Assembly: GCA_903813345.2 (NCBI GenBank)
Contig: CAIIXF020000001.1
Location: 18,972,001 to 19,036,000, forward strand
Reading direction: 5' to 3'
Origin: Owenia fusiformis
Lineage: Eukaryota
DNA length: 64,000 nucleotides
Positions 15,701 through 39,700 of this stretch are shown here, in pieces. A program made the translations under genes and the position numbers. The notes below the pieces were generated by a model that saw only the letters and a list, made by a program, of their open reading frames with translations, had not been told where the DNA came from and did no database searches. Each line of letters begins with the position of its first letter. Position 1 is the first letter of the stretch.

Positions 15701-18700
15701 ATGGTTAAACACATTTTAATCACGACCTGGTAAATCATTGGATTCCTTGTTTTTAGTTTTATTGCTTCCTCGAATTTTGCATCTATTCTTTATTCAAAAG
15801 ACTGACAGCCTACCACCGACCAAGCAGACCCAACTGTGGAGATTGAATGGTCGGTGGTCGGCGGTCGGTCTTTTTCGTAAACCCTTTTAAAAATACGATC
15901 GAAAATTATGCTTTAAATCACTAGCCCAACAAATAAGACATGTAATAAATTGCTTGACCAAGTTTTTTGAGACATAAGCTTTAATGTGTGATTAACGTAT
16001 TAAGGACATTAATTTTCTAGGCTGACGGATCAGACTTTTATTCCAAACAGTGCCTTGAGAGAGCGTGTAACAACTGTGGGGTATGGCACCTAAAAAACCA
16101 CATCGCACCGCTGGAGGCTCATTCAAATAATCACGTCAAATGGCAGAGATGGCAATCCCAAGTTTTTCATCACAGGGGAAAGAAATGCTCCAGAAAGATG
16201 TTGGTTACCAAACAGGGTGACTGGGAGACTTTCCAAAAGGAATTTCTGAATGAGATGGAAACATTTTCTTTGCACTTACATACTGCCAAATGGCAATATA
16301 GACAATTTGACTTCATAACTAAAAATGTACCGGTCAAAAAATGTGTCATGTGCCTCGATTTTGCGGAAAACTACACCTGCTCATATCAAGATGAAGCACA
16401 GGGTGCCCACTGGTCACAAGATCAGGTCACCCTTTTCCCCTCAATCAATTTCTACAGGTGTCCTATATGCCAAGAGATAATAAAACACAGCATCGTTGTA
16501 TTGTGCGACGATAAAAAACACGATAGTCTAGCAGTGAACACATTTCTTGAAAAAATTCGCGGCGAAATCGGAAAAGTAACAAATGAAATTGAAGGGGATA
16601 TTCTATTTAGTGATGGCTGTGCCTCGCAATTCAAGTCCAAACACCCGTTTTTAACGGCAGCAAAATCTCATTTAGCTGGCCGTCCTATTGACAAACACTT
16701 TTTTGGGTCTAGGCATGGCAAGGGGCCATGCGATGGGGAGGGGGGTGTTGTCAAACGTATGGTAACATCGGCAGTAAAATCTCGGCGAGCAATAATTTGT
16801 AACTCTGAGGATATGTTTGAATATTGCCAAAAGAATCTGTCAAAAACAGCTGATAACGACGGAGCATGTTGCCACAACAGGAGATCATTTATACATATTA
16901 AAGATGCCCACGCGATTGCTCACCCCATTGTTGAGATAAAACCAATACCAAACACTCGAAAATTACATAACGTGGGTAATTGTGGAGATTCTAGCCTCGT
17001 TTCAGTGCGAAATTTATCTTGCTTTTGTAACGTTTGCCTGGGTATTGACTTGGGTCAGTGCACGCAGAAAAAATGGGTTGAAGACAAAAAGATTGTTGAA
17101 ATTCGCCAAAAAACTAATAGATCCAATTCTGTCTCGGGTGTAAGACCAAGAGCTGGGCGTGTTATTGCAAGAAGAGTGGCAACAAGAGGTGGTCATGTTG
17201 GTTCTAGACGGGGAGATGCAACAAGAGGTGGACGGAGCGGGAGAAGAACAGTTGTTACAAGAGGCGGTACAGGGGCGAGAAATGTGAACACTGTTAGACG
17301 ATCACTCTTTGACACCTTCTCCATGTTGGGAATTGATGTGTCGGCGACAACATCTACAGGTAAAATTCATTGGATTCTTCATTCCTACTTGGCAAAAAGT
17401 TCATCGAAACCATTGAATAGGTTACAAGATTTTCTTATCGTCAACGCTTTCATTAGTCTCAGTTTGCAATTCTTGCAGAAATTACGGTGGATTTCAGAAT
17501 TAAATTTGAATTGTAGAACGAGGGGGGTTCAGAATTTTGATTTAGATCTAACAGTCGTTCAATGACTTTATTTCTTTTAGAGGATTAAAGTACGAGACGG
17601 TAAGTAAAAAGTGAATACAGGAGGCAATTTACGTAAAATCATGACCTTTGAAATAGAAGAATCCTCGTTATTTTCTCGTTTATTTCTTTGTTATTTAACA
17701 ATATTCTTTATCAAGTTATAATTTTCGTTCGTCAAAACTATTTCAAAATTGATTACAATCCGGTAATATTGTTATTCTAACAAATAAATTTTAGTTCATT
17801 TGTAACAGCTACACATTTTTATTTACATAACTAATTCTTGAAATAGTTAAGGGAATAATAATCAACCATTGTCTAGGAAACGTAGTCGACACATTTCAGT
17901 TTAAAGCAAAAAGAATACAGACACTTAGCGTTGCTTTAAAGTTGACTGAATAACATCTCTGAACATTAAAGTTTTTTCGGTATTGTGTCTTAGAAATTCA
18001 CTTTTAGAGGATTCGCTGTTATACGAGTTACTGTACACGCTGAGTTAACTTCTGTTTTTATTTTCAGGATGTATGAATGGAATTCATACCAGTGAATCTT
18101 ACAATGGACATTCGATAGATTATTTGTGGTTGACGTTGATAAATTATACTGTTATATGTTTTCATGTTAAACAGGACATTTCACTTTTTCTGTGGACGTT
18201 CAAGTTGTTATGCAATAAATTTTAAAAACGAAAATCAATGATTTTATTTTTACATTTAATTGGGCTTTGCATATGACAGAACATTAATACAAAACAGCAA
18301 AATTGTATTTATTACAAACACTGACATAACAAACTTTACGCAACGTACAAACCTCATCCAAAAAGTTCATATTGGAGCTCCAATTTGGTTCCGTAATCTT
18401 CTCTGTCCTCTCCTGTCCTTGCTCACGACCGAGACGGCTTTTTCATTATTTCAATATATGATTCTTAAGGCTGTCACTTCATTCTTGTTTCATAAAATTT
18501 ATTTCCCATATCACATGTACATGCAATTACAGAGGAATGGACATTGGAATATCAATCAGAATAAAATAAGAGAAAAATACAGAAGTGTATTAACGTCCGG
18601 TCGTGATGCCATAAATTAAGGGCTGATGTTCAAATAAACATTCAATGCAGTCTGATACAAAGTTTTTCAATTGAACAAGATATCCGTTGACTATTTATTT

Positions 18701-21700
18701 TTGATTTTTGATTTGGGATAATTCTGGTAATAAATCATTATTACAAGTATACTTGACAGACTATCACGACCGGACGATTTCCACCTGCTGTAGGAAACAA
18801 TGCTGATCTGCAAAAATAGTTTAACGAACTATCTTGTACAATATATATTCTGAAACTTTAAAGTGTAAAGTATCAGAAAAGCTAAAAATTGATCAGTTAA
18901 ACAACATTTGAAAAATTGACCCCTGGTTGACATTTTCGGGAGCAGTACTGGAGAATGAGCCATATATAAAACATCTCACATTTCAACATCAAAATGATTC
19001 AAAACTAAACAAAACAAATATTTCCATTTCTTATCAGATATCCTCAAATCTTTTTTCTTCATAGAGACAAACAAATAGGACATGGGGACAAATTGGAACT
19101 TCAAGTTTGCAAGATTTAACACATGCTATTGTTTGCTGCAACTATAAAATGAAGGACCCATGGTCCTGTGCTCACACAGTTTGGAACCTTCAGAGGAATG
19201 TATATCCTGACTTTCAAACAAAAATATTGATTTGGATTTGTAGTCTCAAACTTTGAGAAACTTAGATAGCGTAGTTGTGTGACCTAGTTTGATGACCTTT
19301 GACCTTGAAAATTTTACTTAGTCAGAGCTCAGTAAGGTCTTTTGTGATTAAGCTGACCAAAATTTACATCCAAAAATCAACTTTTTTGACCTTTCGAAGG
19401 TCACTGAAGGTCTTTCGAAGGTCACTGAAGGTCAACTAAAGGTCAAATCCTAAAACTAAGGTCAGATTTGAACTCCTGACAACTTGTAGATGATTTTCAA
19501 AAAAAAATTTGGTCAAAAACAAGCTGTTTACCAGAGGTGTGCATGAATTGTTGTCTAGGCCTAATGTATCCATCTCATATTCCAGCACAAGGTTTGAGTT
19601 CTCTGTCCTGAAAAACATCAAATGCACAAACATTAATTACATTTCAAAGCATCAAGTACCAAAACATTGATCAATGCATTTCAATACAATAAATACACAA
19701 ACAGATTACTGATTTAAGAGTAACATTACCATGTGTGAACTTAACTTTGAGATCTTGACATACATGTACACTGTACATTTCAAAAGAGTACCATTTATTT
19801 CGACACAAAATAAATTATTTGCACTCATTCAAAGCATTTACTGTAAAAAGATAACGGGGGAATATTTAAATAACAATTAAAAACAACTGCTGCAATCTCT
19901 CTGTCTTCTATTAAAACAGTAGCATTTTTCAAGCGTTGAAATGTGTTGACACAAAATAAATTAGATGCAATCATTCAGAACATTTACTGTAAAAATATAA
20001 AGGGAGAATATTTAAATATATCAAAAACGATTCCTCCAATCTCTCTGTCAGATAAGTAACAACCATCCAAAAAACTTAACAAATTTTGTATGTCTATTCA
20101 TTTATTTATTTTTTATTCATAGAATCCATTTTACAAATACATATATTATCAGCCACTTGAAAATGTATGTTTATCAATATCATCCGAAGGCCATTTACAT
20201 TCAAATTCAAAAAAGTGTATATAATATATGTGCATATACAATCATACAATTATTTATTTTTACATGATTGGGACAATACTGTTTAAGACTTCCCAGCCCA
20301 TTCATATGTGATGGATGTTAAATATTTGTAAGAGATCATTGCATTTTTTGGGACTCAATATAAGTATGAGTATGTTACAAAAAGGTTATTGCACTATCAT
20401 GGTCTGTGCTCTCATTGGTTGGCAGAGTGATGCTCCTGAAGGCCAGCATCGTCTGATTTTTATGTTTTATCAAACCAAATACCCAATACATCTATATATT
20501 CATCTACATGTATTCTCTTAAAATTAATTTTCAAAAAGGTTTATATACTTTATTTGGAGGGGGATACATCAAGGTGGAGTAATTAATATCCTGGGACAAA
20601 ACATCCTAGGGTGACAATCTGAGGTGAAATGGCTTTGTGGTAAAATGTCTAAGAGTTTAAGTCTAAAGAGTATTTGGATAACATACATGTATCACCTAAT
20701 GTGGAGAGTAGTAAGAATATAGTACATGTACAACAAGATAACTCCAACCAATAAGTTGTGAAGTATATAATATGTGTTCGTCTGAACAGAGAACATCATG
20801 AGAATGGAGAAGAGGATGGAGGCAAGGTAGTTCTGATGAGATCTGATCTGCGTATATTGGACTTTTTTAAATAGGGGAGCTTGATCATCCAAAGCGTTAA
20901 TACACATAAAGGTCCAAAAGTTGTCAGACTTTGCCCATCTTAAGCAGTTAGGGGTCTAACTTCATCTTGAGCTAATGCAGCCTTGAGATTAGACCAGAAA
21001 TGAGTTCCTGGCCATTGAATATAACTTTTCCTCTGAATCAAATGTTTCAACACTTTGTTTATTGGCTGAGCTAGAATGACCTCAGCTGGGTCGAGTAGAA
21101 TAAGCACTAAAACATCAACCCCTTTGTCAAAAAGAACATTTCTTGCCATGTACATTTCATACAAACAATACTGACTCGTGGAAAACTCTTTTGTGACCAA
21201 GAGCAATGTCTTACGACTTTTATCTACTGACTGAACTATGTTTTCCTGGATGTAGGTCCCTGGCATCCAGTCTCTTAAATGAATACAGAATTGGAAGTCA
21301 TTGTCACGTTCAAATGAACAAAGATCATCAACAACCCATTGTGTGCTATCAGCATGAAATGACACAAATGCATCATATTCAATGATGACTTCATTATGCA
21401 TTTCCATGAGTCGTTTTTGTCTGTATGACTTCCGGAGGACATAGTACCAATATCGTAAGGTCCATCTATTGTAATGCACAAGCTTTCCAATTGCAAGAAC
21501 CATTATAATACAGAGCAATAAAGAACCACTGATAACATATGGTGTCATGTCAACCCTGTGGCAATCATTCCAAAGTTCCTCTACATTTATCTGATCAAAA
21601 GCCAAAACAGAACCATTGTCAAAAACGCATTTGTACTCAAAGAAACCTGGGAACATTTCCCGCCTTTCCAAAGCTGTCATCCATTTAAGTGATAACAAAG

Positions 21701-24700
21701 ATTCACCACAGCCACATGTTAATGCATTCCCAGTTAGATCAAGTGTGTAGTTTGTACGTTTTTTTAAATCATCCAGCATTTGTCTTTGTTTTGCCGCAAT
21801 CAAATGTATTTCATTATGAGACAAGTTAATGTTTTTAATGTTATTGTGTCTTGATAAATCGAGAGAGAAGTTATATATTTGATTAAAACTCATATTTAAA
21901 TTTGACAGATTTACCATGTTAAATATGGCATTCTCCGACATATATTCAATATTATTAGCTGCGATATCTAAGGTTTTCATTGTTGTCAGATTGGCAAATA
22001 AACGTCCTTCTGAATCATGGTTTATCACCAAATTCCCCATGTTGTTCTGGCTCAAATATAAGGCCTCTAAACGTGGAAGATAGTCAAAACCATCTAGAGC
22101 AAAATAATTGAAGAAATTTCCTTGCATGTAAAGATATTGCAGCTTGTTCAATCCAATAATTGGACCGTTCCATTTGAAAATGTTAGCAAATGAAATATCT
22201 GCAATCCTCAATGAATTGTCACCAAGACAAGTGTATCTGTGGACTGCGTCAATGCCACGGCTTAAATGATGAAGATAAAGCTCCTCCAAATGTGGTGGCG
22301 CTGGCCACATTTCTGAGCAATGTTCAAACAATGCTTGAGAATCTCTCTTTTGTAGTTTCTTTGGAAATATCAAAGGCATCTGAAGAACGTCTCTCTTCTT
22401 ACGAGAACGTATTTGAAGAGGCCCCATATTTCTATCTCTTGGGTAGGATTGGTAACTAGCATCAAATGTACGTATGGTCTTTGAAATTGTCAAAATGTCT
22501 ATATATGGTATATTAACAATATAGTTCATGGCTATTTTAATATGTTCTATAGAATTGAGATTAAAGCTAAATCCTGGCATTAATATTGCTAAATTATTTC
22601 CACTGATATCCAGTGTTTTAAGTTTTGTAGATTGCAAACCTTTGAAAAAGTGCCTTTGCAGAACAAATGTGTTCCTATCATTCCTTATGTTTACTCTTGC
22701 TATGTTTAGCGATTCTATCTTCCTTGATATTCCTTTAAAGGCTTTGACTAAAGGTGAAGTCATTCGCATTGTCAGATGGCGATTATAGCTTAAATCTAAT
22801 TCCCGTAGATTATCCAATTTACAAAATGTGCATTCAGCTATACGTTTCAGTTTGAGATCACTCAGGATAAGTCTTGTCAAATTTGGAATAGAACCAAAAG
22901 TTTCATTTGTAAGATATTGTATTTCATTACTTTGAATGTTGATAACAGACAGTTGTTCAAGCCCAGCAAATATTCCTGGTGTAATATCAGCAATTCTGTT
23001 GTGAGAAAGGTCCACAATGCGTGTGTTTCTGGGCAGCCGAGGAATTGCATTTAATGATCTTGCCCTACAATCTACATATAACCCTTGATTCTCACTGTTA
23101 GTGTTACATGTGCACTCCCCTGGGCACAAATTAGAATGTACTTTTTCAACATTGCCAGTCTGTTCTAAAAGTTGTTTTGAATTATCATCTTTATTTTGTT
23201 GGAGATGTTCATGAAGAGTGTTGTCTCCAGTAAAGTTGTTTCTAGTGCTATAGCTGGTCTGCCCAATGTCCCTTTCAGCTCTACCATGAAGAAGCATAGT
23301 TGATAGGCCATGACTATGCAGGAGTATGGTTAGGACTACTGAAACAACTACTGCTGTGCAATTGTGTCCTTGTGATGCCATGTTCTTTATCAGGCATGAA
23401 TGGAACCCTTTTATTAAGTAATCTGCAACAAAAAGACATTAATTAAATTCAAAATTAAAACTTATAGAAAAAGACCTCTTATTAATAGTATTTGTACATA
23501 TAATTCAATCATTCAATCTGTAACACCTTGTCTTTCTGCCAACACCAGAAGATGGATCATATGGTTATACTTAATCAGGGGATTATAAACCCATTAACCA
23601 AAATTCCAATTACCAGGGAATGGCATACACACAAAGACAAAGAAATGTCATACCCATTGTAAGAGTTAGAAATTACCAAGGAATGCCATACTCAGACTAG
23701 AAATTACCAAGGAGTGGTATATACAGGGTGTCCCGAAAGTATGGGGCCCCCCCTAGGCAGACATATACCAGTGTCCTCATAGTATGTGTCATATATCATT
23801 TTAAAGCTTATACAAAGTTACATTGATTCGTCAAGTATCATGGTTCAACTTTCAAATGTGAAAAAATTACAGGCATTTCAAAATTTAGTGTTTGGTCAAA
23901 ATTAAGTTCAATTTTACACCAAATCAACAGTCAATGTGTCCTCCCGGGCCATCTTAACAGCAGCAATTCTTTTCGGGTCGGAGGGATATTGAGTTGGAAA
24001 AAGAGAATGGTGAGGGTAGAAACTCTAAGGAAACTGTTCTAAAGTCCCTTAACAGGTTTTAAGAGGGTTATAAAATTCCACATCCCTATTTGAAGGGCTT
24101 TTAAGGTCATATCTGAAAATAATTGCTGCTGTTAATATGCCCGAGGGGGGACACATTGACTAGTAATGTGGTGTAAAATTGAACTTTATTTTGACAAAAC
24201 ACTAACTTTTAAAATGAGTGTAACTTTTTCCCATTTGGGAATTAAACCATGATACTTGGCAAATCAATGTAACTTTGGATAAGCTTTAAAATGATATATG
24301 ACACATACTATGAGGACACTGGAATATGTCTGCCCAGGGGGGGCCCCATACTTTCAGGACACCCTGTACATAGTAGTTATAACCAAGGAATGCCATACTC
24401 AGACTAGAAATTACCAAGGAATGGTATAATCCAATTAGAAATTACCAAGGAATGGCATACTCAGACTAGAAATATAGTAGCAATTACCAAGGAATGACAT
24501 ACTCACAGTAAGTATAGCCAAAATGGCAATATCCAAGTAGTAACATACATGTATATTCAGTTGTGATAATCAAAAAGGAATGGCAAGCCCATAGTGTAAT
24601 AAAAAATAATAGCAATCCCACATACAGTGATAATGGCCTACATAGAGAGAAGCAAATCCTAATGAACCATTTGGAACAAATATTCAGAAAATGGTTGGTT

Positions 24701-27700
24701 GTTTTGAATTTTGCTGTAATATTGAAAATTCCGTAAACTAAATCCATAAAAATATTTCAGTTCGAACCATTCTGAAAAGAACATATTTCGGATTACATTA
24801 CAGAGCTAAAAAGTAGAGTATTGGTAGTAACTGAAGTTTGGAACAAATGAACAGAAAGACAACTTTTCTATAGCCCTTAATATAACAGACAAACCTTGTA
24901 TATTGTGGTAATGTCAGAGATATAGTCTTTAAATGAACATAACGTGACATGAGAAGTTTCATTATCTTAAGGTACCCCCCCCCCCCAACAACAACACTTT
25001 AAACTACTCGTAGATTCACATGTCTATATGTTAGAAATGATAAAAGATTTATATTCATCAATAATAGTGTATGAAGAAGATAAATGTACAATCTAAAACA
25101 TATACTCACTTTCTGCTTTTGCGGCTGTGTTTCACAATGTTCTGATGTTTAAAATATGGTCTCTTGTCAGCTTGTAGTCATTGTGTTTATTTGAAAGTGG
25201 TATCAATTTACAAACTGAACAAACATTAGTGCATGTCACAGTGATCTATTTCTAGAATGAGAAAAGTGGAAGTTAAAGTTTATATTACACCCACTTATAT
25301 ATCACAGACACTTAATCTATTGTTCATTGTATGATTCAATATCATGATTATGTCTTAAAGGAAATGGAACTAAATTTTAATTGAAATCATTGGCCTCATT
25401 TTGATATAAGTATGACACATGGTATATTTGAGATTTGTTTTTTTTTACAGTTGTGCTAATATAAAAGTGTACAACTTTTTATATGGTTTGTTTACATTAA
25501 TAAATGGAATGAAACTTAAATCAATTTAGTTAGTTCATATTAATTTGAAATACATTTTCAAAATATTGAGTACTAGTCTGTAAAAATGGAAGGAAATACT
25601 CTCAAGGTCAATACTAAGTGACACTGGAACTCAATTGTTTTCAAAGTTAGAGAAACTTAAAAACAAAGATCATGTTTCAGTTACTCTGAGTTCCCAGGGG
25701 TTTTCTGCTGTTAACATCGCTTCAAATCACATGCTGTAAAATGAGCCTGGAGTAAAAATATGATTATGATTAGCCACATGTGACAAAGACAAATACTTCA
25801 GAAAAAATATCAATGGCTCTTGGTTTTATCTAAAATGTTGATTATATGTAACTCTATATACTCTAATAGTAGCCCTATTTGCAAGGGATGTGATCATATG
25901 ATGATAAAATAATAAAAAGATAATATCAAGGAAATACACGAGACAACAATTGTAGAACACAAACAAAAAAATCTGATTATGTTGACCTTTGGTTGTTAAG
26001 TACCAAAGCAATCAGATCATTACATCTCTAATTATAACGATAATTGAAAAACTTTACAGATGCAAAATGTCCCTTGCATGTCATTATCACCAAGATGCAT
26101 GCAAATAGATGGATTAAGAGAATGATCAATGATAAAAATAAAAGTAATAATGTTTTGTGTTAGCTTACTTCCTTAACTGATGATAAAGTGATCTAGTACT
26201 AACCTGCATCATAAAGTAGGAAATGTTGTATTATATTAGTGAGAGGTAGGTTTGTAGTGTGAACCATCACATGAAGTCATTTGATTACAACATGGGTGTA
26301 ACAGTATCATTTTTTATGTGATTCATGATATCAACACTATCTGAGTCCTATTCAACATTTTCAAGTAATTCCTTGAGGGGATTTTCTCTAGAGGTGTCAA
26401 GTATTAACCGGTTAACCGGTTAACCGCCGATAATGCCTTGACCGGTCTGAGTTTTTATGGGCGGTTAGTTGACCGTGTATAATTCTGTTATTTCCCGCGC
26501 TTATTTTGCATGCTAATCCGTTTGGTTTTATGGTGTCAGTTTCACGTAAGCTACTCATACATGTCATAAGTCCCATAAGTCCTTACAAACATCCAATCAG
26601 CAACTTTAATCCCTGCCACATTGCTTTCCCGCGCTTACTTTGCATTTTAATCTGTTTGTTTTTCAAGCGTCAGTTTCATGTGAGCTACTCATACATGTGA
26701 TAGGTCCGATAATTCCTTACAAACATCCAATCAGCAACTTTAATCCCTGCCACATTGCTTTCCCGCGCTTACTTACATAGAATAGCGTAAAGCTTGACGA
26801 ACGTAAAAATAAACGCCGATATATCATTTTTCCAATTTTTTCAACTTTCAAGATCGAAGATGAAGATTTCATTTGAAATTATAAGTTCAAATTTCCCGCC
26901 GGTTAACCGACTTTAACCGGTAAAACCCCCCGGTTAACCGGTTAATGCTCAAGCGGTTAATTGACACCACTAATTTTCTCATTCTGATAAATGAACACAT
27001 GTATCAACATGTATTATTTCGAAATGATCATTATTCATTTAACATACAAAAGCTGCACCTTCGAGCATTACAGATATTTTACATCTTGAAAATGGAGACT
27101 TCAGTAGATATTTTTCCTAAATACCAGTGATATGATACAAATTGTTTTGAGCTATTGCTACATCATAAAAGAAATGCCAATCTGCCATTTTTATGAGTTC
27201 CTTGAAATAGCTTTATTTGTGTCAATTTCTATGAAATTCTATTGCTATTTCTATGAAAAATAATTTTGGCAAATTTATTCTGATATTTTAGCATTATGAT
27301 CTTTGATTTGACTGTGAATACAGTCTAATCACGTCCCTGGATGTTTAAAACAATATATATGGCTTGTACCATATACTACAGATTAACTTTGGTAGGTTGA
27401 ACCAGGCATATTCCCATTCAAAACTACTTCATTTGTTTAACTTTTCTTTTAAATGATTAACATCTGTGTCACAGGTCCCATGATTTGCGGTAGGTCACTA
27501 GTTTTTTTATTATATTTTTGTAGCTGTTTACCTGAAAATATCATGTGACTCATCTCATTTTCATCATATAGAAATGTTTTATTGCAAAATAATAGTAATC
27601 TATAAAATAAATAATATTTGTCAGAACCTTTTTTAAAGTGGACAAAAAGAATAAACGCTTGAAAAGGTTTCAATAACATAAATGATGTATTTTTTTACTT

Positions 27701-30700
27701 CATGATCTATCATGATGGTACAATAACATTAAGATGATGATAACCTTTGTATGAACATCGGGTAAAACACCTAGAATTATAACCATCATTTATGAGCTCC
27801 AGACATGAGTATATGCATTGCATTTGCATGGAACATTTAAGCAACATATTCTTATAATACATTTACCGTATATAGACTTATCAATTAGACGACATCCAGG
27901 AAGGTCATCATATTAAAAAACATGGAATTAATATGTGGAACCCACTTCAAGCATTCAATTCATATTGATCAATATTGTATAAAACAATATCATTAATTCT
28001 TGGAAGGCCTTAATATCGACACAAAATTATATTCAACCATAAGCAACAAGCTGGTAAATAAATGTAAGTATAACATTTGTGAAATACATGTAAAGATCAA
28101 ATAATATAATATCTCACACTATTCCATCATTTGCGGCAATGTCAAATAATTTTTCTCTAACAAAACATGCAAGCAAAGCTTCATCCAGGCACCAACAGTC
28201 ATTGCAGTTTAAAGAGTTCAACTAAGTGGAGCACCCAGCCAAAAGTAGCTGGGGAGACCACAGGGTAATCTGTACAATTTGTTGGATCAGTGATTTTCCT
28301 TAATTGAATTTTTCTGTATTTTATGTGAATCTTTGAATAACAAAGAGTTATTAAGCATTCATGAACTGTATTTCGAATTATTTTCTTTCAGATTTAATTG
28401 AAAAAGAAAATGCGAAAAGAGTGGATATTTCTTATACTAATGGGATGTATTATCTCAATAGTAATACTCTTTCATTTAAGTAAATATAGCACAACAATTC
28501 AGCACCATTGGAGAGCACATATTCCAAGGAGAACTAATACCGCTATGGCAAGCAATATGTCAATTGCAAACAACCTACAACCACAAGCACCACACAACAT
28601 TGACTTCATTCAGAGAAACAAGGAACTTATTGACAAAATCAGCAAGAATTCGAGACACAACATTCCAAGAAACAACAAACTTATTGACAAAATCAGCAAG
28701 ACTTTAATAAGCAACATTACAAGAAACAAGGAACTTATTGACAAAATCAGCAAGACTTCGAGACACAACATTCCAAGAAACAACAAACTTATTGACAAAA
28801 TCAGCAACACTTTAATAAGCAACATTACAAGAAACAAGGAACTTATTGACAAAATCAGCAAGACTTTAATAAGCAACATTACAAGAAACAATGAATTTAT
28901 TTACAAAATCAGCAAGACCTCAATACGCAACATTACGAGAAACAACAAACTTATTGACAAAATCAGCAAGACTTTAATACACAACATTATGGGAAACAAT
29001 GAACTTATTGACAAACTCATCAAGACTTCAAGACGCAACATTCCGAGAAACGACGAAAGAGACATAACCAACAATCAACTCCCTATGACATATAATGATA
29101 GTAGAGTAAAGATATCACAGCAAAGGAACAGCCTACCCCCTGAGCTGGTAGAAGTCAAAGCAAGAGCACAGATGATCGCAAACAATAAAGTTGTCGTTGC
29201 AATCACTATGGTTAACATGGGATACCTATCACTAACCTATAGCTGGCTATGTAACACAGTCAATATGAACGTACATGATAATGTCCTTATTGTAGCTACA
29301 GATAGGAGAACTTATGAAAAACTCCAGCAAGACTGGCCAAATGTTGCCTCTGTCTTATACCCACTAAATGAAGACCAGGGGTCAAACTTAAATTACAATG
29401 CTCTTAACTATGTCAAGTACATGTTAAATAGGTCCAACTTATTGCTAGCTTTGTTGGGCTTCAACATACCATTGTTATTGTTTGAAGTTGATGCTGTGTG
29501 GTTTGCATCACCGTTTCCACTAATTCATAGTCTCTCTTACTATGATCTAGTAGGAGCAAAAATTGCAACCACAGAACAAATGGCTGGAGGTTTTCTTTTC
29601 ATGCAACCCACTAGAGACACATTAAATGTATTTACGACCGTCTCAAATGAATTACAGATATATCTGGATAGATATAAATTCTATAAGGGTGATAGACAAC
29701 TCCCCTATGAGATCAATGAACAAACACTTTTAAATGGAAATCTGAAATATGAAAATGGAAGGCCAAGACTTAATTATAAAATCTTAGACCTTAGCATTGT
29801 GGCTGATGGACAGTGGTATAAAAAAAGAGGTAAACAATCAATACCATTAGTTTTAAATAACAATTGGATTATAGGTAAAGAAGCAAAGATAAAGAGAGCG
29901 AAAAAATTTCACCATTGGTTTATTGATGATAACAACAACTGTGATTGGGAAGAGGTTCAAAATATAATGAAGTTAGGGAAAAATTTTCATTGAGAATGTC
30001 AAAGTTATTGAAAGTGAATGTAAAACCTTTATCCCATACTTAGTAGTGTTATAGGTAAATAACATGTGGGGATATAATCGATATCTGAAGTGAGCGGGTG
30101 ATATAATATATCTCCCGCTGAGGTCAGTGGGAGATATATTTTTGTGAATCCACACCCAGTTGAATTAAGTTGATTCACTGAGCCCACTGTGGCTTATGTA
30201 TGATGTTATGATACTTGTGAAATACTGCCATGAGTGTTGCTACTAGCTATAGGGCAGATAGGGCTTATTTTGATAGGCTCATTGTAGCTATAAATTCTTG
30301 ATTGGAATTTATGGATTCAATTTTGGAAGATGAGCCTAAAACCTAACGATAAGGCGAAATTGTATAACAGATTGAAAGGAATAAAGCAAAATAGATGAAA
30401 CATAACTCTATCAATTTTAATATACAAATGAAATCTTACCTCCATTTTCGAAGAGTATGCATGAGACCTGTGTAGCCTAGCGCAGATGCCATATGTAGAA
30501 TAGTTAGACCTTTCTCTGCAGTCATATGAACCGTGCTGTTTTTCTGCCATGTACATTGGATAAATGAGTCGATATAACACATCAACTTTTCCTCGAAATG
30601 ATCATGAGGTTGACTGATCAGTTTGTCATGCTGCAAAAAATTATAAAAATTTATTAGTTTGTTGCTTCAATTCATGGTTGATTGAATCCACGCCCAATTG

Positions 30701-33700
30701 AATAGTTGATTCACTAAGCCCACTGTGGCTTATGTATGATGTTATGACACTTGTGAAATACTGGCATAAGTGCTGCTACTAGCTATCGGGCAGATGCTCC
30801 ACCAAAATTTACACATCAAATATTTTGAATATTTTACTGACTAAAACTGGCAAAATCATATCCAACAGAAGTATAATAATATTCTCTTTTGATTTAGTTC
30901 TACCTCATCTATCTTATTTTGCTTTGCATAAATAAAACATATGTTCATAAGTTTAGGTCTACACAGAACATGTTTTACTTAATTACGATTCAAGCCATTG
31001 TGATCCCCCTATGTATTACACTCACATCCATGAGAGAATAGATAAAGGTTTAGAGGGTTCCAGTGACTTGATGCAAACTAGGTTCTGATGTATTAAAAGA
31101 TGGCAGTAGTAGCCAGATTTTGCCAAGGGGGTTCACTTTTAAAAGTTTCGAGGAGATTCTAATTTGACAACTTTTGGCCCAAAGTCACTTGAAAAGTGCT
31201 CAGAATGGTGAATTTTGTCTAAAGGGGAATTCGCTCGAAATTCCCCCCCCCCACTAAGGGGATGTCAGCTCTCTTAGTACAAATAGAACACTACTGACAC
31301 CTTTACTACAGTCCCTTTGGTTACACTGACCTGTAAAACATGTTCAGGGTTCCTGGGTGACAAGCGCTTCTCTAGTGCTTCAACCTTCTCCAGTAAGAGC
31401 ATTTTCAGTTTATTATCTAGAAATATAAACCAGTTAAAAACATCATACCATACTGTCTTCTCCAAAAGGTTTTTCTTTTCTCAAGGGGATCAGCTAGTCT
31501 CATTTTCAAAGTTCTGCCATATTTGGTCAAAACATACAAAGCATATTTCATGAGTTTTTCAGATTTGTATGTGGGTGCAACTGGGTTTTCACTATATAGA
31601 TTCAATTTACCAGTTCAGTATCTATGCCTTACTGACAACTGTCCTTTCTCTATAGATATACTTATAAAAACTACAGATATAATATACTACAGGTATAGTA
31701 AAGATATAATTATTATGCAACTTTGGGATTTTCAGTTAATTTAGTTGATTGTTCTATTCTCTGTGAAAAAATATTGAATTCCAAGCAGATTATAAAAAAA
31801 TTATAGCAAGATAAAAAAAGGATGTTTTTTGGTCCACCCTGTATATATGCAAAAGTACTTACCACCAATAGAGAACCAGTCCAGCTGGTTGGTAGATATT
31901 GAATCAGTAGCCTTGTACTCATATATACATGAGTTTGATATAACCATTCCCTCACACGCCACCTGCATTGTCACTAGACCTGCTTCATGAGCTGGAATTG
32001 AGAACATTGATCATGGTTATTATTATACATTGTAAGGCCAGGTAGAATCTAATAATGTGACCCAAGCCAGCCATATACCAGTAGAAGGATGGGAGTCGGT
32101 TGAGTTGAGGTTTTTAACACTTTGAACACTAAAATTTACAATGACCACCAGACATAATACAAAGACACAGTGATATATGTCGCACAATGAAGAGCAAAAT
32201 TGCCACTGTGCACATTCACCCAGCATGCCCCCAGAACCTAATGATAATAACTAGATCTTGGCACTAGTCTTTTTGCATCTGTAAAGATTTATGTGGCACC
32301 CATCTATCCAGACGCATGCATGCCGAGCAGCACAGGACAAAGATAATAGAGTACTTTTCCAAATTGCATTAAAAAGTTGGAATTGAAGGTGTACATGTAT
32401 TTATTCAAGTCTAACTTTGAGTAATTAAGGTAAAAGAATGTATGCTATGATTGTAATTTTTTCACTTAATATATCAATTGAATACAACATGAATTGGGTA
32501 TTACCACATCAGTTTTGACACACAGAAATTGTTTAACAGACATCGATGCTTTCTACATTAATGCTTTCTCCCAGATAAAATTATAATAATTAATCTGTAA
32601 TTCACAAAACTGCAACAACGTCTTTTTCTTATTTCTAATTAGGATTAAAAACTTTTGAAAGAATTGTTTTTTCTAAATGAAATAGCACTTGATATGCATT
32701 TTATAAATTAACATTAAAATTAAATGAACATTAAAATGCAACATTATTTTTAAATTAAGATTACCATCTTTTGCAATTAGCGTTAAATGTATTTCATCAA
32801 AAACATGGTGTTTATACATAATTCATTAAACTAAATCATTCCTTTCTGATATCAACAAAATTTACGATGTTCATCTTGCCAATAGTTGGATAACTTTTTA
32901 TTAGAATAAGCAGTTCAAACTCTTGAGGCACAGACAGCCAAAGAGTTATTGTTTGCTAAATAAAATGGAACTTCAAACATTCCTTCTGCTCCTATTGCTG
33001 ACTGTTCAGTACTCTTATTGCGCTAACAACAAATTGAAAAGTTGTCAGGCTAAGTTAAAAAGGCTACAAAATGATTACAATGTACTGAAAGTCGCCGGAC
33101 AATGTACATGCAATTGTGAAGGCATCAAAGGTCTTCCAGGGCCAACTGGACCCCAAGGACCACAAGGGCCTCCAGGACCAACAGGGCCTCAGTTGCCTAC
33201 GACGTGTCCTCATGATTTTGTCCAAAATTCTGAGTTTGGAAGTTGCTATAAGTTATTCACGGTGGAACCTTTCAGTTGGATTGATGCGCTCAGTCACTGC
33301 CAGTCAATGGGAGCGAATCTCGCTATGATCGAATCAAACGAGGAACAAAATTTCTTAAGGGAACAAATACAGCAGAAAAATAATCTCGAAAATTTCTGGA
33401 TTGGACTAAATGAGCTCCATGGTAACTGGAGTTGGTCTACCATGCCTGGTCAGGAAAATGAACCATTGGGGAAGGACAGCTACCACAGTTGGAATGTTGA
33501 TGAAGGACAGCCTGAAAACAATGATCAGAATTGCGCCAAGATGGCTGGAGGCACAAGTACAAGAAATTATAGATGGCATGATGATTTATGCACGAGCAAA
33601 GATAAGTACATCTGTGAAATAAAACTTAACATAAAACAGAAGTAGGTTAAAATCATCAAACTTGGTTAGCCATATGATTGAAACAATTAAGTGTTAACCG

Positions 33701-36700
33701 AAAAAGGTGATGGTGTATCTAACAAATTGGGACGTAAACAAGAAAATGAAGCAAACTCCTCATAGTGGAGATCTCCAAGTCAAGAAGTTGCCCAGCTTAG
33801 GCCCTGAAACATCAATTGATTATCCCAGTTGTTTTATGATAACTGATTCATTATTCATTGAAACCAAAGAGCAAGGCACTGAACAAAACTATATGCTTGT
33901 TTGCTTTGTCGTTGGTTAGGTAACATGCCTATGATGTCACAAAAGATACAAAGATACATTAAACCAGTCAGTGAGGTCTAGAGTATTTGTTTGTTTGGTT
34001 GTTAATATGGCTGATTTATGGCGCAATATATGACCAAAAACTTTATTGTGTTCATTGTTAAAAGACCGAAATTGCGTGGTCATTTATTTGCAATAAATCA
34101 TAAAATCGAGGTCTTTGTTACGATTCTAATATGATAATAAACAGAGAAGAAAAACAACTATTTCCATTTATGAATTTTAGAGGTCATACATACTCCAATA
34201 TAGATGAGTAAATCAATTGTTCTAGCTATTGTGGCAACACGTATCATGTTAGAATTGACGTTATATATAATGAATCAGTATTTTTTTAAAAGATTTATTA
34301 TATTTGAATTTAAACTCTAAAAATCGATCAGTTGATTTAAATCAGGGTAGAAGGAGGTGAAGAAGTGAATGAATACAGGAGCAAACACGAGCAATGGATC
34401 GAACGCTCTCGCAAAGTAGTCGCTGTCAGAGGAGATTTCTCCAAAAAAAGATTTAGTTACGAATTCGCATATCAATTGTTGTAATCATGGGTAAAATGAT
34501 GTCACAGTTAGAGAGCAATGGGATAAATAGAAATTGAACTAATATTTCACATAATATTTCAGTTGAATTCAACCGAAACATGACAACATCAGGTTGGACA
34601 TACAGAAACTGATCAATAGCACTTGTCATACATTTATTGCATTCCCCAGACAAAATTAATCTGTAATTCAATAAAACTGCAACAACATGTTTTTCTAATA
34701 TCTAATTAATATTAAAAACTTTTGCTAGAACTGTTGTTTTCTAAAAGAAATAGCATTTAATTTGTAATTTAAAAATTAATGATAAAATTAAATGAACATA
34801 AAAATGAAACATGTTTTGTTAAATTCTTCTGGAATTTGTGTTATTTCCTCAAAAAGCGCATTTATTCATAATTTATAACTCAGACTGCATCATGCCTTTC
34901 TGACAACAAAAAAATTTACGATGTTTATCTTGCCAACATTTAGAGAACTTTTCATTACAAGAAGCATTTCAAACTCTTGAGGAACAGACAGCAAAAGGGT
35001 TATATTTGCTGAATAAAATGGAACTTCAAACATTCCTTCTGCTCGTATTATTGCTGATTGTTCAGTACTCTTATTGCGCTAACAACAAATTGAAAAGTTG
35101 TCAGGCTAAGTTAAAAAGGCTACAAAATGATTACAATGTACTGAAAGTCGCCGGACAATGTACATGCAATTGTGAAGGCATCCAAGGTCTTCCAGGGCCA
35201 ACTGGACCCCAAGGACCACAAGGGCCTCCAGGACCAACAGGGCCTCAGTTGCCTACGACGTGTCCTCATGATTTTATCAATAGTACCGAGTTTGGAAGTT
35301 GCTATAAGTTATTCACGGTGGAACCTCTCAGTTGGATTGATGCGCTCAGTCACTGCCAGTCAATGGGAGCAAATCTCGCCACGATCGAATCAGATGAGGA
35401 GCAAAACTTCCTAAAGGAACAAATACAGCAGAAAAATAATCTAAAATATTTCTGGATTGGACTAAACAACCTCCATGGTTACTGGAGTTGGTCTACTATG
35501 CCTGGTCAGGAAAATGAACCATTGGGGAAGGACAACTACCACAGTTGGAATGTTGATGAAGGACAGCCTGAAAACAACAATCAGCACTGTGCCGAGATGG
35601 ATGCAGCCAAAAGTGGAAGGAATTATAGATGGCATGATGATCACTGTATGTACAAACATACTTACATCTGTGAAATGAAACTTAAGTAAAATGAAGGCTG
35701 ATAAGTAGTCAGGTGAATAATCTACAAAAGTAGGTTAAAAATCATGAAACTTGGTCAGCAACATGATTGAAACAATTTACTGTTAACTGACAAAGGTGAT
35801 GGGCTATCTGACAAATTGGACATTTATATACATTGTGTTACATATAAAATGGTGCAATATAACCTGGCAAATTGCCTTCTTTCATGACAAGCTTATCATT
35901 TATATGTCGATAAAATATCAGTTTGCAATATATCTTGATGATATGCTGTAGCAATCCTGTGTTTTTATAGTTTTCTCCAATTGGCAAACAAATAGATTTA
36001 TAGAGTCTAGATTGGAACACAAATGATTCCTAAGCTCGTATCATGTTTCATTCATATGATAACCATAACAAAGGGTCCATTTCTTTATTTTGAAAAAAAA
36101 ACAACTTTATATTTATTATATCCACAGTAAAATACCTCACTCAAGTGACAATCTGGTGTTTTAATGACAAACATGTAAAATGGCAATAACAATATGTCAT
36201 ATGTCCCCACTTCAGACTTCTTGGTGGTGACATAAAAATGTTATTTTTCTAATACGATAAGTGACATCACAATATAAATATAATAACAAACGAAGTCTTC
36301 AATATACATGTACCTACAATACATATCATATTCTCTGTAACTTTGAAATGAAACTATCTTTTAAAATACAATGTATTTGCTTTTAAGTTTGCTTATTGTA
36401 TTAGAAATATAACAAAGGATTAAATTAATCATGACAAATATTTTCTACCCATTGCCAAAAACCCCAATTGCTTCATGTTTTCGATCTCTTAAAGTGTGCG
36501 CCAAAGTTTGAAACTGTGCAGGCGCACCGCTCTCGCTAACCTATATAAAGAGATTACCAGGTACAGGCTTCAGAGGTAAGCCAGGAAGGTGAACAATCTT
36601 CGTTCTGTGTTGATTCCCCGTATAATCGTAACCAAGTAAGTTTCACCATTGAAATTAAAAAATACTATTAGATAAACTTTGTAGATGTTGTTTATGAAGC

Positions 36701-39700
36701 TATTTAGTGTATGCATCCAGTGGCGTAGTGTGGGTATTTTATGAGTGTACGCCACGAGTGAGCGAATCGAACTAGCTTTGAGGGGGGGGGGTTCTTTCCC
36801 CCAAGAAAATTTGAAAAGAGATTGTATTTGAGGCGTTCTGGGGCGTTTTAAAATACGAAATTTGGACTCCGAAAAAATGGATTAATAAAATGTTAAGCCA
36901 TTACTTCAGAATATCAAACGTGGGTCATTTCAATATTAAAAATTCACTTTTCTCAAAATTTTGAGAGTACGCTATGGCGTTTTATGCGTATATGACGCTA
37001 CGCCACTGGCATCAATCAAATGGCTCATTTTGAACATATAAAAAGTATTTGTGTTTTGTTTCCCAGGGAATTGTATTCCAATGTAGTACACACATAAATA
37101 GTGTACATTATGTAGGACTTGAATAGCCTGGTTTACATAATATTGAAGGGCATGCTGATTACATGCACACGAGTACATGAATGAAGGCCTAATATTGATA
37201 TAGCTTGCATACCTAAATAAAAATAAACTCTTCTAATCCCCTAATGTAAACACGGCAGTATACGTAGCCCGATTCATCGGGGACTTTAACAATGATCCGA
37301 AAAATTCAGCAGTTATATATTGCGCCACATCATAGAATTATTCCTAAGTAAAGGCAAGTATATGGACCAACCTGGGGAGAAACACCGCAGGACTCCACTT
37401 TGTATGAGTTCCGCCGGAACACTGACGTCATCAAACATGAGAGAGTAGCTAGAGTTAGTGGAATACCAGGGTCCTGTTACTAGAATCTTAGTAGAGCCCT
37501 ATAACACAGAACAATAAATATTTAGAAAAAATTCAAAAAATAACAACTTGATATGAAAGGAGTAGGTTGCATTGATTAGAATATATTTCAGCAGAAAAAA
37601 ATCCCTAAGTTGTACTGTATCCAAAGTCTGGTATAATACAAAGAGCTAGAGTACTACATGTTATATGTGACGGCAAAACTAAGCCATTGATTAAACAGCA
37701 ATATTGTATCAGACACAAGATTATATAACAATCTTTTGACAATTAACAAATGAAATCCAACAAGAATATGAAACAACCTCCATCCTTGAAAGCTGAATCC
37801 TTACTTCAATTTCTTCTTCATGCTTCCTATAGCAAATGTCAAAATATTATAGAAACTATAATAATAAGTCTGATGTTAAAAAAATCCCTCTCTAGTTGTC
37901 TGCAAGGTCTGGTATCTTAATAAAAGAATGACAAACACAACAATGAATATTAAAACAAATATTTTATCTTCTGAGAACATCTATGCAATTTCCACAAGGA
38001 ATATTCTCCAAAGCCTGAATACCTGACATACCATTCCCTTATATTTACCTGTTGAGACCCCCAATCTGGTGAAAAGTCTGTAATTGTAGCTACATTATGC
38101 ATCTTGCCTCCTTGTGACGATTGTGTCATCACAGGGTGAACTTTATGCTGATGTTGCTGTTCCAGCTGTTTCTGCTGCTGTAGCTGTTGCTGCTGTAACA
38201 GATGTTCCTGTGAGGGTTTTATAGAAGGCGAGGATGGGCTCAAGCAATTGGCACAACCCTGGGTTGACAACAGAGGGCGTTGTTGTAAACTTTGAGTATT
38301 CGCCACAGACGAGAGGCTGTGTGGAGTCAAGTCCGCACTGAGATTCTCAAACTCAGGGAGATCAAGGAGTTCAAATGCGTCAAAGTTCAGATCGGTGCTG
38401 TGTGGGGACACTAAATTGGCCCTATTCATATCAATATGTTCTGAGAGACTACACGTGGTAGGGGTACTGTTGATTGTTTTAGATTCACCAAGGTTAGCCA
38501 TTAACGTTTGCGTGACCTCCTCACTTGTTAAAGACTGAAGAGAGCCTGAATGACTAGGTTCGAGCCCTGCTCTTATTGGCTCATTGTTTCTTTGACATAG
38601 TTGTGATTCTTTTGGCAGCCCTATAGGAGAGGTGCTCACTGGGTTAGTAAATGTACTTGTAGGATTCAGAGTGTTGTTTTGATTGAGTGTGCCGCTGGGA
38701 TTGAGTGTGCCATTGGGATTGAGTGTGCCACTGGGATTGAGTGTGCCATTGGGATTGAGTGTGCCACTGGGATTGAGTGTGCCACTGGGATTGAGTGTGC
38801 CACTGGGATTGAGTGTGCCACTGGGATTGCCACTGGGATTGAGTGTGCCACTGGGATTGAGTGTACCATTGGGAGGATTGAAAGTGGAACGAGAAGGATT
38901 AAAACTAGAAGGGAGAATATTATTCAATGGGATTTCCCTAGGGAGACTTTGAGTATCTCTAGTTTTATCTATAGCTCCCAATCTCTCATGCATTTCCATG
39001 TCTGGAGTCCTTGCTGGGCCTATGGGCACTGGGGCCTGGGGTGGCCCCATGTTGCTATTTATAATAGACACAGGGGCCTGAGTCTGACTGCTCAGAATAA
39101 TCACACCATTGCCCCCTTGCAACTGAGATAAATTCAACACCAGAGGGGGCTGCTTTTGGGCACTATTATCTGCCACTTGAGTGTCCTGAGATTGCTTCTG
39201 TAACAGAGAGACTAGTTTCTTCTGTAGTACTATTGACGATACACCCTGAGATGGTTTCGACTTACAGAACTTGCAAAAGTTTGTGTGGTTACATGTACAT
39301 TGTGTGCCTGCTCTACACCTCATTACCTCATCGACTATGTTTTCAATTGTCGCCACAGTCTGGAATTAAACACATTACACATGCTAATTCATAATATTAT
39401 CAGTACAAAAACCATTAAGAAGTCAATCTTAACTCAATCCACATAAACATGGGAATTGCACGCTTTTTTATTCAGAAATACTAATTGAATAGATCAGATT
39501 GAAATTAAAGATCTGAAATCTAATAGTCACCCCAATATATCATGGTTCTGTTAGGGCTGTTTTTTATTATATACAATGACATCAAACATAATAATACAAT
39601 TTCAATATGTGAATTATGTGATGCTTAATATGTAAAGCAAAGGCTCATTGATCATGTTCTGACCTCTGACACCAATCAGAGCTTGTCATTCCTAAATACA

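Follow-up and report, generated by a model that had tools for sequence, protein, structure and literature searches.

Four intact genes nested in two long introns of a CAMTA gene of the annelid Owenia fusiformis

Genes nested within the introns of other genes have been surveyed in mammals and in Drosophila. A mammalian survey reports nested genes within 12% of the genes of mouse and 17% of those of human, with long introns preferred, an orientation bias that is not strong and, for most pairs, no correlation between the expression of host and nested gene (PMC11694760). In Drosophila, intronic genes are reported to account for about 6% of the genes (PMC3786989). In our study, a stretch of 64,000 nucleotides from Owenia fusiformis was analysed (assembly GCA_903813345.2, contig CAIIXF020000001.1, forward-strand positions 18,972,001 to 19,036,000; called the window here, with positions counted from its first letter). 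A gene for a calmodulin-binding transcription activator (CAMTA) in this window was found to contain a Toll-like receptor (TLR) gene, a glycosyltransferase (GT) gene and two C-type lectin genes in two of its introns. These are probably ordinary host and nested gene pairs, which would have been formed by old and independent insertions into ancient CAMTA introns and by a subsequent local duplication.

The Owenia locus resembles the animal host and nested pairs in having complete genes in long introns of a larger host, in both orientations and with no evident functional tie. It differs from them in that a single host holds four nested genes of three families in two introns, along with transposon-like open reading frames (ORFs) in a third. 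In vertebrates, introns of alpha-catenin genes contain nested LRRTM genes, and leucine-rich repeat (LRR) domains are reported for most of the nested genes examined in that work (PMC3933685). In both cases an LRR transmembrane gene lies in a large intron of an unrelated conserved host. The LRRTM genes, however, are described as lying on the opposite strand in a pairing conserved in jawed vertebrates, whereas the Owenia TLR lies on the host strand. No survey of nested genes in annelids was found in our literature search. Further, a search of titles and abstracts has turned up no work that describes genes within CAMTA introns or invertebrate TLRs as nested genes, and the literature on intronless annelid TLRs or on Owenia TLRs offered, by title or abstract, nothing relevant to this arrangement.

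The CAMTA host gene and its long introns

The large minus-strand ORF at 37953-39365 led to an unnamed partial protein of Owenia fusiformis (P0001; 993 aa, 62.2-Mb contig), to which the exons of the window are 100% identical in the large exons. Splice sites (GT/GC-AG) were sought by a script, which tried every combination up to 45 nt from each block end for its ability to reproduce P0001, and each of the 12 resolved junctions was found to have exactly one solution, with GT-AG ends. The exon chain obtained in this way (Table 1) covers 986 of the 993 residues, the C-terminus of P0001 not being reproduced. Pfam analysis of P0001 has shown a TIG domain at residues 211-291 (1.7e-7), an IQ motif (5.7e-10) and an Ank_2 match at residues 372-442 that lies under the cut-off (8.1e-4; 20.3 bits against 27.3). 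The minus strand of the window was also scanned with Pfam, covering 145 of the 169 ORFs of at least 50 aa (the other 24 lie opposite the nested genes and a 455-aa ORF). CG-1 (PF03859) was found in the ORFs 41664-41882 (1.4e-18) and 40813-41112 (6.5e-11) and IQ in the ORFs 9066-9356 and 8427-8708; the TIG and ankyrin exons were not picked up when Pfam was run on single exons. Moreover, the translations of the four N-terminal exons fit the CG-1 consensus.

With P0001 as query, HMMER found 1,819 proteins at E<=0.001. The top matches were named CAMTA 1/2-like proteins of a nemertean, bivalves and gastropods, and the order of TIG, ankyrin and IQ is the same as in these named proteins. Four named spiralian CAMTAs (nemertean and mollusc) are collinear with the window from 44754 down to about 8451, from CG-1 to IQ. 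Given this collinearity, the host is, as judged from its exons and domains, one complete, multi-exon and ancient CAMTA gene. The exon at 44754-44677 has no in-frame ATG, hence at least one further 5' coding exon would lie upstream of it.

The twelve resolved introns measure 550, 5,380, 446, 700, 10,832, 7,710, 207, 310, 298, 384, 522 and 295 bp. ORFs were found only in the three long ones (introns A, B and C in Table 1), the other nine being 207-700 bp in size. As codons ~265 and 397-401 of P0001 are interrupted, introns B and A fall in the TIG and ankyrin regions, respectively. The region from 17 to 40 kb contains six ORFs that start with ATG and reach at least 120 aa, and four of these are the nested genes. 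Each nested ORF, taken by the bounds of its coding sequence (CDS), lies wholly inside one host intron; the TLR is on the CAMTA strand, and the glycosyltransferase and both lectins are antisense to the host. Each of the four translations has an exact counterpart in NCBI/UniRef, located on the 62.2-Mb contig that also carries P0001, so the public annotation likewise calls them single-exon CDSs. This annotation is described as a merger of RNA-seq and ab initio models from which transposon-like models were removed (PMC9977687). The original prediction had given the two introns at identical coordinates within the ankyrin and TIG regions and had described four intact genes with intronless CDSs, and the exon chain and the deposited models agree with it in all these respects.

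The history of these introns was approached through distant CAMTA loci. A metagenome scan with a nine-sequence CAMTA alignment gave 37 metazoan CAMTA loci, among which the TIG junction is spanned only by one (L009) and the ankyrin junction only by L009 and L003. L009 scores best with Owenia (578 bits), closely followed by a nemertean (538 bits) and a gastropod (532 bits), and is, as far as these scores tell, a distant relative. Its exons are divided at the same residues (~265, 401 and 427). The introns there measure about 0.4, 0.56 and 0.32 kb, hold no ORF longer than 114 aa and leave no space for the nested genes. L003 lacks introns at residues 401 and 427. When the TLR, the glycosyltransferase, both lectins and the 455-aa ORF were compared by tblastn with all 37 loci (143.6 kb), no match was found. 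The intron positions common to Owenia and L009 indicate that these positions are ancient, and short empty introns in at least one distant lineage would favour insertion into pre-existing introns, a comparison which bears on distant relatives only. A growth of the host around older neighbours by exon gain was also considered. We rejected it in view of the conserved CAMTA domains on both sides of each intron and the recurrence of the intron positions in L009.

The nested genes

The nested TLR combines an LRR ectodomain, one transmembrane helix and a cytoplasmic TIR domain in one protein. Its AlphaFold2 model (mean predicted local distance difference test score, pLDDT, 80.3) has an LRR solenoid, with the transmembrane helix at residues 613-637 and the TIR domain at 669-804. 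The ectodomains of TLR5, TLR8 and TLR9 were the top Foldseek matches, with low TM-scores, and the sequence matches in the PDB were TLR7, TLR3 and the TIR domains of TLR1, 2 and 6. Four cysteines of the LRRCT type lie before the transmembrane helix (C556, C558, C585 and C607) and hardly vary when the protein is aligned with 29 homologues. Pfam gave one LRRNT match below the cut-off and no match to the LRRCT model, and no second cysteine cluster was found in the sequence. Single-cysteine-cluster (V-type) and multiple-cysteine-cluster TLRs have been defined, and repeated TLR radiations in Spiralia described, in earlier work (PMC8609888). The cysteine pattern suggests that the nested gene is a candidate single-cysteine-cluster TLR, with its one cluster next to the membrane. 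Relatives at E<=1e-20 number 186, of which 120 were listed. The best non-self match among those listed is a TLR4 of Pecten (29% identity), and the 119 listed besides the TLR itself include no protein named as Owenia. No relative came out of a metagenome scan with the TLR as query.

A separate observation concerns a 40-residue loop in the middle of the TLR ectodomain (residues 316-355), which was modelled as disordered (pLDDT <50) and contains RSRKKRD, presumably a dibasic furin-type motif. Residues are present at positions 321-340 in only 12-15 of the 29 aligned homologues on average. The loop is reminiscent of the cleaved Z-loop of TLR7-9, and TLR8 is among the top structural matches.

The glycosyltransferase belongs to PF03407 with 80.9 bits against a cut-off of 22, and in an 11-member alignment its protein (P0003) has the shared residue at all 31 listed invariant columns, including LLFEVD. 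It is predicted to be a Golgi-type GT77-like glycosyltransferase. A 54-nt tandem array at 28614-29057 (8.2 copies in Tandem Repeats Finder) encodes a repetitive stem of about 170 aa, which is unmatched in 9 of 10 relatives, the tenth (P0129) aligning to a small part of it. Six Owenia paralogues with 41-51% identity lie on contigs of 62.2, 34.9 and 40.8 Mb and of 9 kb (at least three chromosomes), and cephalopod relatives have 34-37% identity. A horizontal origin of this gene was considered and rejected in view of the Owenia and cephalopod relatives together with its host-like composition and CpG depletion.

The two lectins are identical at 192 of 222 aligned residues. A 300-nt tract covering the signal peptide and triplet region (32993-33292 against 35049-35348) is 97% identical. 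The synonymous divergence (dS) rises from 0.017 over the first 85 codons to 0.27 over the lectin domain, and the ratio of nonsynonymous to synonymous divergence (dN/dS) lies at 0.4-0.6. This contrast along the pair indicates gene conversion of the 5' half, and the pair itself is, by its flanking duplication units (Table 1), a product of local tandem duplication. The differences between the two proteins cluster near the C-terminal loops of the lectin domain.

Collectins of vertebrates, exemplified by MBL, SP-A and SP-D, are like the Owenia lectins in being secreted and in having a G-X-Y stretch followed by a C-terminal C-type lectin domain. In collectins this domain carries EPN or QPD plus WND as its sugar and calcium motifs. 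The Owenia lectins differ from the vertebrate proteins in that the collagen-like region is limited to 8 G-X-Y triplets (18.2 bits with Pfam Collagen, whose cut-off is 27.2), no helical neck follows the triplets, only LPT standing before TCPHDF, and the motifs are QPE and WHD in both. A heptad-like stretch was instead found N-terminal of the triplets. FcRY, DEC-205, PLA2R, the mannose receptor and DC-SIGN are the nearest solved sequences, and no collectin is found among the best 60 of 94 solved-structure sequence matches. The earlier description of these lectins as collectin-like is therefore a loose one.

Table 1. Positions of the host gene, the nested genes and the accompanying repeats in the window.
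Feature	Position	Strand	Evidence or remark
TLR, single-exon CDS, 813 aa	20940..23381	- (host strand)	Pfam LRR_8 1.2e-31, TIR 2.5e-10; exact deposited protein
Glycosyltransferase, PF03407 (GT77-like), single-exon CDS, 527 aa	28410..29993	+ (antisense to host)	Pfam 1.7e-22; exact deposited protein
Lectin 1, 226 aa: signal peptide, short helical stretch, 8 G-X-Y triplets, C-type lectin domain	32965..33645	+	Lectin_C 1.4e-20
Lectin 2, 223 aa, tandem duplicate of lectin 1	35018..35689	+	Lectin_C 4.7e-22
Tandem duplication unit 1	32460..33730	+	blastn vs unit 2, 82.5% identity over 1,317 columns
Tandem duplication unit 2	34545..35819	+	blastn vs unit 1
Host CAMTA gene	8126..44754	-	minimum extent, at least 36.6 kb
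Intron A, 10,832 bp, ankyrin region; contains TLR and glycosyltransferase	19608..30439	-	single GT-AG junction 30440/19607
Intron B, 5,380 bp, TIG; contains two lectins and dispersed repeat	31992..37371	-	single GT-AG junction 37372/31991
Intron C, 7,710 bp; contains transposon-like ORFs	11822..19531	-	exon chain
CAMTA exon	38049..38717	-	exon chain
CAMTA exon, first TIG part	37372..37498	-	exon chain and Pfam TIG on P0001
CAMTA exon, second TIG part	31863..31991	-	exon chain
CAMTA exon	31331..31416	-	exon chain
CAMTA exon, ankyrin region start	30440..30630	-	exon chain and Pfam on P0001
CAMTA exon, ankyrin region	19532..19607	-	exon chain
CAMTA exon	11074..11821	-	exon chain
CAMTA exon	10780..10866	-	exon chain
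CAMTA exon	10196..10469	-	exon chain
CAMTA exon	9725..9897	-	exon chain
CAMTA exon	9195..9340	-	exon chain
CAMTA exon	8479..8672	-	exon chain
CAMTA last exon	from 8183	-	exon chain
134-nt tandem repeat, 2.1 copies, between TLR and glycosyltransferase	26491..26774	.	each copy with TTTCCCGCGC and CCAATCAG
MITE-like inverted repeat, 228-nt arms, 89% complementary (MITE, miniature inverted-repeat transposable element)	23718..24372	.	about 340 nt upstream of TLR start codon
Dispersed repeat in intron B	36484..37289	.	self-blastn, copies 54155-54485 and 55786-55963, 89-96% identity
Transposon-like ORFs in intron C	13890-14777 (295 aa), 16021-17565 (514 aa)	+	not in public annotation

Age and origin of the nested genes

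The process which we favour can be put as follows. Three unrelated genes (TLR, glycosyltransferase and C-type lectin) would have entered two pre-existing CAMTA introns by insertion or rearrangement at the DNA level, and not recently. The lectin would then have been duplicated in tandem, with its 5' half homogenised by gene conversion, and the glycosyltransferase would have grown its repetitive stem. Each nested gene may use its own promoter and poly(A) site. We infer in this account that an ancestrally short intron received the insertion, that the insertion is old and that the nested genes are transcribed independently. All four nested genes are intact, and the dN/dS of the lectins, the invariant columns of the glycosyltransferase and the confident fold of the TLR fit constraint.

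The alternative that fares best is that of recent retroposed or transposon-captured copies of fast-expanding families, which had landed in permissive introns. The intronless state of all four CDSs speaks for it, as do the MITE-like and dispersed repeats in the same introns, the transposon-like ORFs in the neighbouring intron C and a glycosyltransferase family with at least 7 Owenia members. Against it, no A-rich 25-mer was found within 800 nt downstream of the four nested stop codons, where a retrogene would be expected to carry a poly(A) remnant, and no A-run of 8 or more was found within 800 nt of any of these stop codons, save one 9-mer at +404 of lectin 2. Direct or inverted repeats bordering the nested genes, as in the target-site duplication of a retrogene, were also not found with a 12-nt seed and a 25-nt minimum, a setting which short or decayed duplications would escape. 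Moreover, the closest TLR relative among the matches listed has 29% identity and the closest glycosyltransferase paralogue 51%, and the lectins are explained by local tandem duplication. The observed/expected CpG ratio of the nested CDSs (0.25-0.46) is like that of the host CDS (0.38) and unlike that of intron C (0.75-1.45). The divergence of TLR and glycosyltransferase, the lectin duplication, the lack of insertion marks and the host-like CpG depletion together point to the four genes as long-standing residents. By these signs they are not recent retro- or transposon-borne copies, and a recent arrival is unlikely. Old retrocopies would have shed such marks, so an ancient retroposition is conceivable.

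The transposon-like ORFs of intron C were absent from the original prediction. Pfam gave nothing for the ORFs 13890-14777, 13904-14503, 16021-17565 and 18260-18619, the Atlas matches of the two ORFs in Table 1 were only unnamed eukaryote clusters drawn from several animal phyla (one with DUF7869 in 12% of its members), and a repeat search in intron C found no convincing terminal repeats for the transposon-like ORFs. These two are probably parts of a decayed or broken transposon gene which would be relatively young.

Other repeats were also noted. The MITE-like repeat is bordered by 31-nt tandem repeats at 23595-23725 and 24365-24551. The copy of the dispersed repeat upstream of CAMTA (54155-55963) is split by a 1.3-kb element at 54486-55782, whose 50-nt inverted ends with 98% identity point to a young DNA transposon. 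The CAMTA exon 30440-30630 is bracketed by two copies of a 115-nt repeat with 91% identity (30145-30259 and 30683-30795), one in each adjoining intron, and tandem arrays are present at 42875-43733 and 47261-48141. At 48001-56000, upstream of the first CAMTA exon seen, the CpG ratio is 0.82-0.94 in comparison to 0.3-0.5 in the gene body, which could reflect the CAMTA promoter region or young repeats. No Rfam match at gathering thresholds and no tRNA gene by ARAGORN was found in the window.

CAMTA is deposited as a partial model. Its start, at 38717, falls within the large exon and adjoins a tandem repeat of 18 nt (38626-38877) coding for (GTLNPS)n. The ORF of the large exon runs on upstream past 38717 without interruption. 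As the CG-1 exons at 44754-40819 lie outside the deposited model, the public annotation appears to truncate or split CAMTA.

Regulatory readings of the nest and its meaning

A quite improbable reading is that of transcriptional interference, in which the same-strand TLR, with poly(A) signals of its own, would compete, inside the ankyrin-region intron, with the making of full-length CAMTA and the antisense genes would collide with host transcription, so that expression would be mutually exclusive. AATAAA/ATTAAA signals were found 386 and 682 nt past the TLR stop codon, on the host strand, and host transcripts ending at them would be without the IQ motifs. Such crosstalk is among the effects reported for host and nested pairs (PMC11694760, PMC3192792). 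On the other hand, signals of this type are frequent in DNA with 34% G+C, and most mammalian pairs are described as having no negative correlation (PMC11694760). Very doubtful is the related proposal of an old conserved annelid nest, where transcription and polyadenylation of the TLR and antisense transcription of the glycosyltransferase and lectins would gate full-length, IQ-bearing CAMTA. Recognition genes and Ca2+/calmodulin transcription would then be coupled, either excluding or following one another, by the DNA they share instead of a transcription factor site.

Certain points weigh against the reading of ordinary host and nested pairs. With one distant locus for comparison at the TIG intron and two at the ankyrin intron, the polarity of intron growth is weakly supported. 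The word-based TLR search scored 8,000 candidates, so that Owenia paralogues of weak similarity may have escaped the list. Glycans or microbial patterns are the targets of all three nested families, and three VCGCGB boxes (26495, 26629 and 26763) lie 1.65-1.9 kb upstream of the glycosyltransferase start, between this gene and the TLR.

The common glycan or microbial-pattern function and these boxes are also what speaks for a co-regulated recognition module, as had been proposed in the original prediction. Here CAMTA, or chromatin opened by its transcription, would drive the TLR, glycosyltransferase and lectins jointly as an immune or glycan unit. In plants, CAMTA3/SR1 controls immunity through CGCG boxes, which counts in favour of such a module as well. 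The Owenia host shares with the plant protein its CG-1, TIG, ankyrin and IQ architecture but differs in that CGCG boxes are not enriched at the nested promoters. Defined as VCGCGB or MCGTGT on both strands, CAMTA-type boxes number 38 in the window (0.59 per kb), and in the 1.5 kb upstream of the TLR, the glycosyltransferase, lectin 1 and lectin 2 there are 0, 0, 0 and 1, respectively, which is below this background. The scan for CAMTA boxes that had been suggested for these promoters thus gave no enrichment.

Extension to 2 kb upstream of the glycosyltransferase adds the three VCGCGB boxes and one MCGTGT (26473). As successive copies of a single 134-nt tandem repeat, the three are to be counted as a single event. 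This repeat holds 3 of the 24 CGCG tetramers of the window and is the sole CGCG cluster near the nested genes. Its boxes, with TTTCCCGCGC beside CCAATCAG, presumably fit an E2F/CCAAT promoter pattern equally well. The repeat looks like a promoter-type or repeat-borne module, and it could mark a 5' exon of the glycosyltransferase. A strict kappa-B motif occurs once in the window and upstream of none of the nested genes.

Bidirectional promoter pairs have divergent starts within about 1 kb. The starts of the TLR and glycosyltransferase are indeed divergent, as had been described, but the 5' ends had been put about 3 kb apart and the start codons lie 5,029 bp apart, which argues against a compact bidirectional promoter. 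The genes are also unlike in apparent age and origin. No immune role of animal CAMTA turned up, a subject to which no dedicated search was devoted. Most mammalian host and nested pairs are, moreover, described as showing no expression correlation (PMC11694760). With upstream boxes, spacing and gene ages all failing to support it, a co-regulated module is highly unlikely, and the evidence suggests no functional link of the nested genes to CAMTA. The other possibility offered in the original prediction, a permissive landing site, fits better, in that ORFs occur only in the long introns and the introns of L009 are short and empty; the retro- or transposon-mobilised copies proposed with it are not supported.

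That the CAMTA exons do not form one gene or that foreign pieces were mis-joined is hardly credible, for although the public model is partial and begins at 38717 beside a tandem repeat, the window contains no N, the large-exon ORF is unbroken across that point, the domains are collinear with full-length orthologues and every resolved junction has one GT-AG solution.

This study has also an outcome for annotation, as the public CAMTA model is truncated and the transposon-like ORF has been rightly excluded. If the nest were conserved or the expression coupled, the locus would gain in importance, since a receptor gene nested on the strand of a calcium-responsive transcription factor would offer a case in which regulation through transcriptional interference could be tested. 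If the four genes are ordinary nested genes, the arrangement would have no bearing on immunity, and Owenia would provide a clean annelid example of ancient short introns growing by taking in whole genes that duplicate in place.

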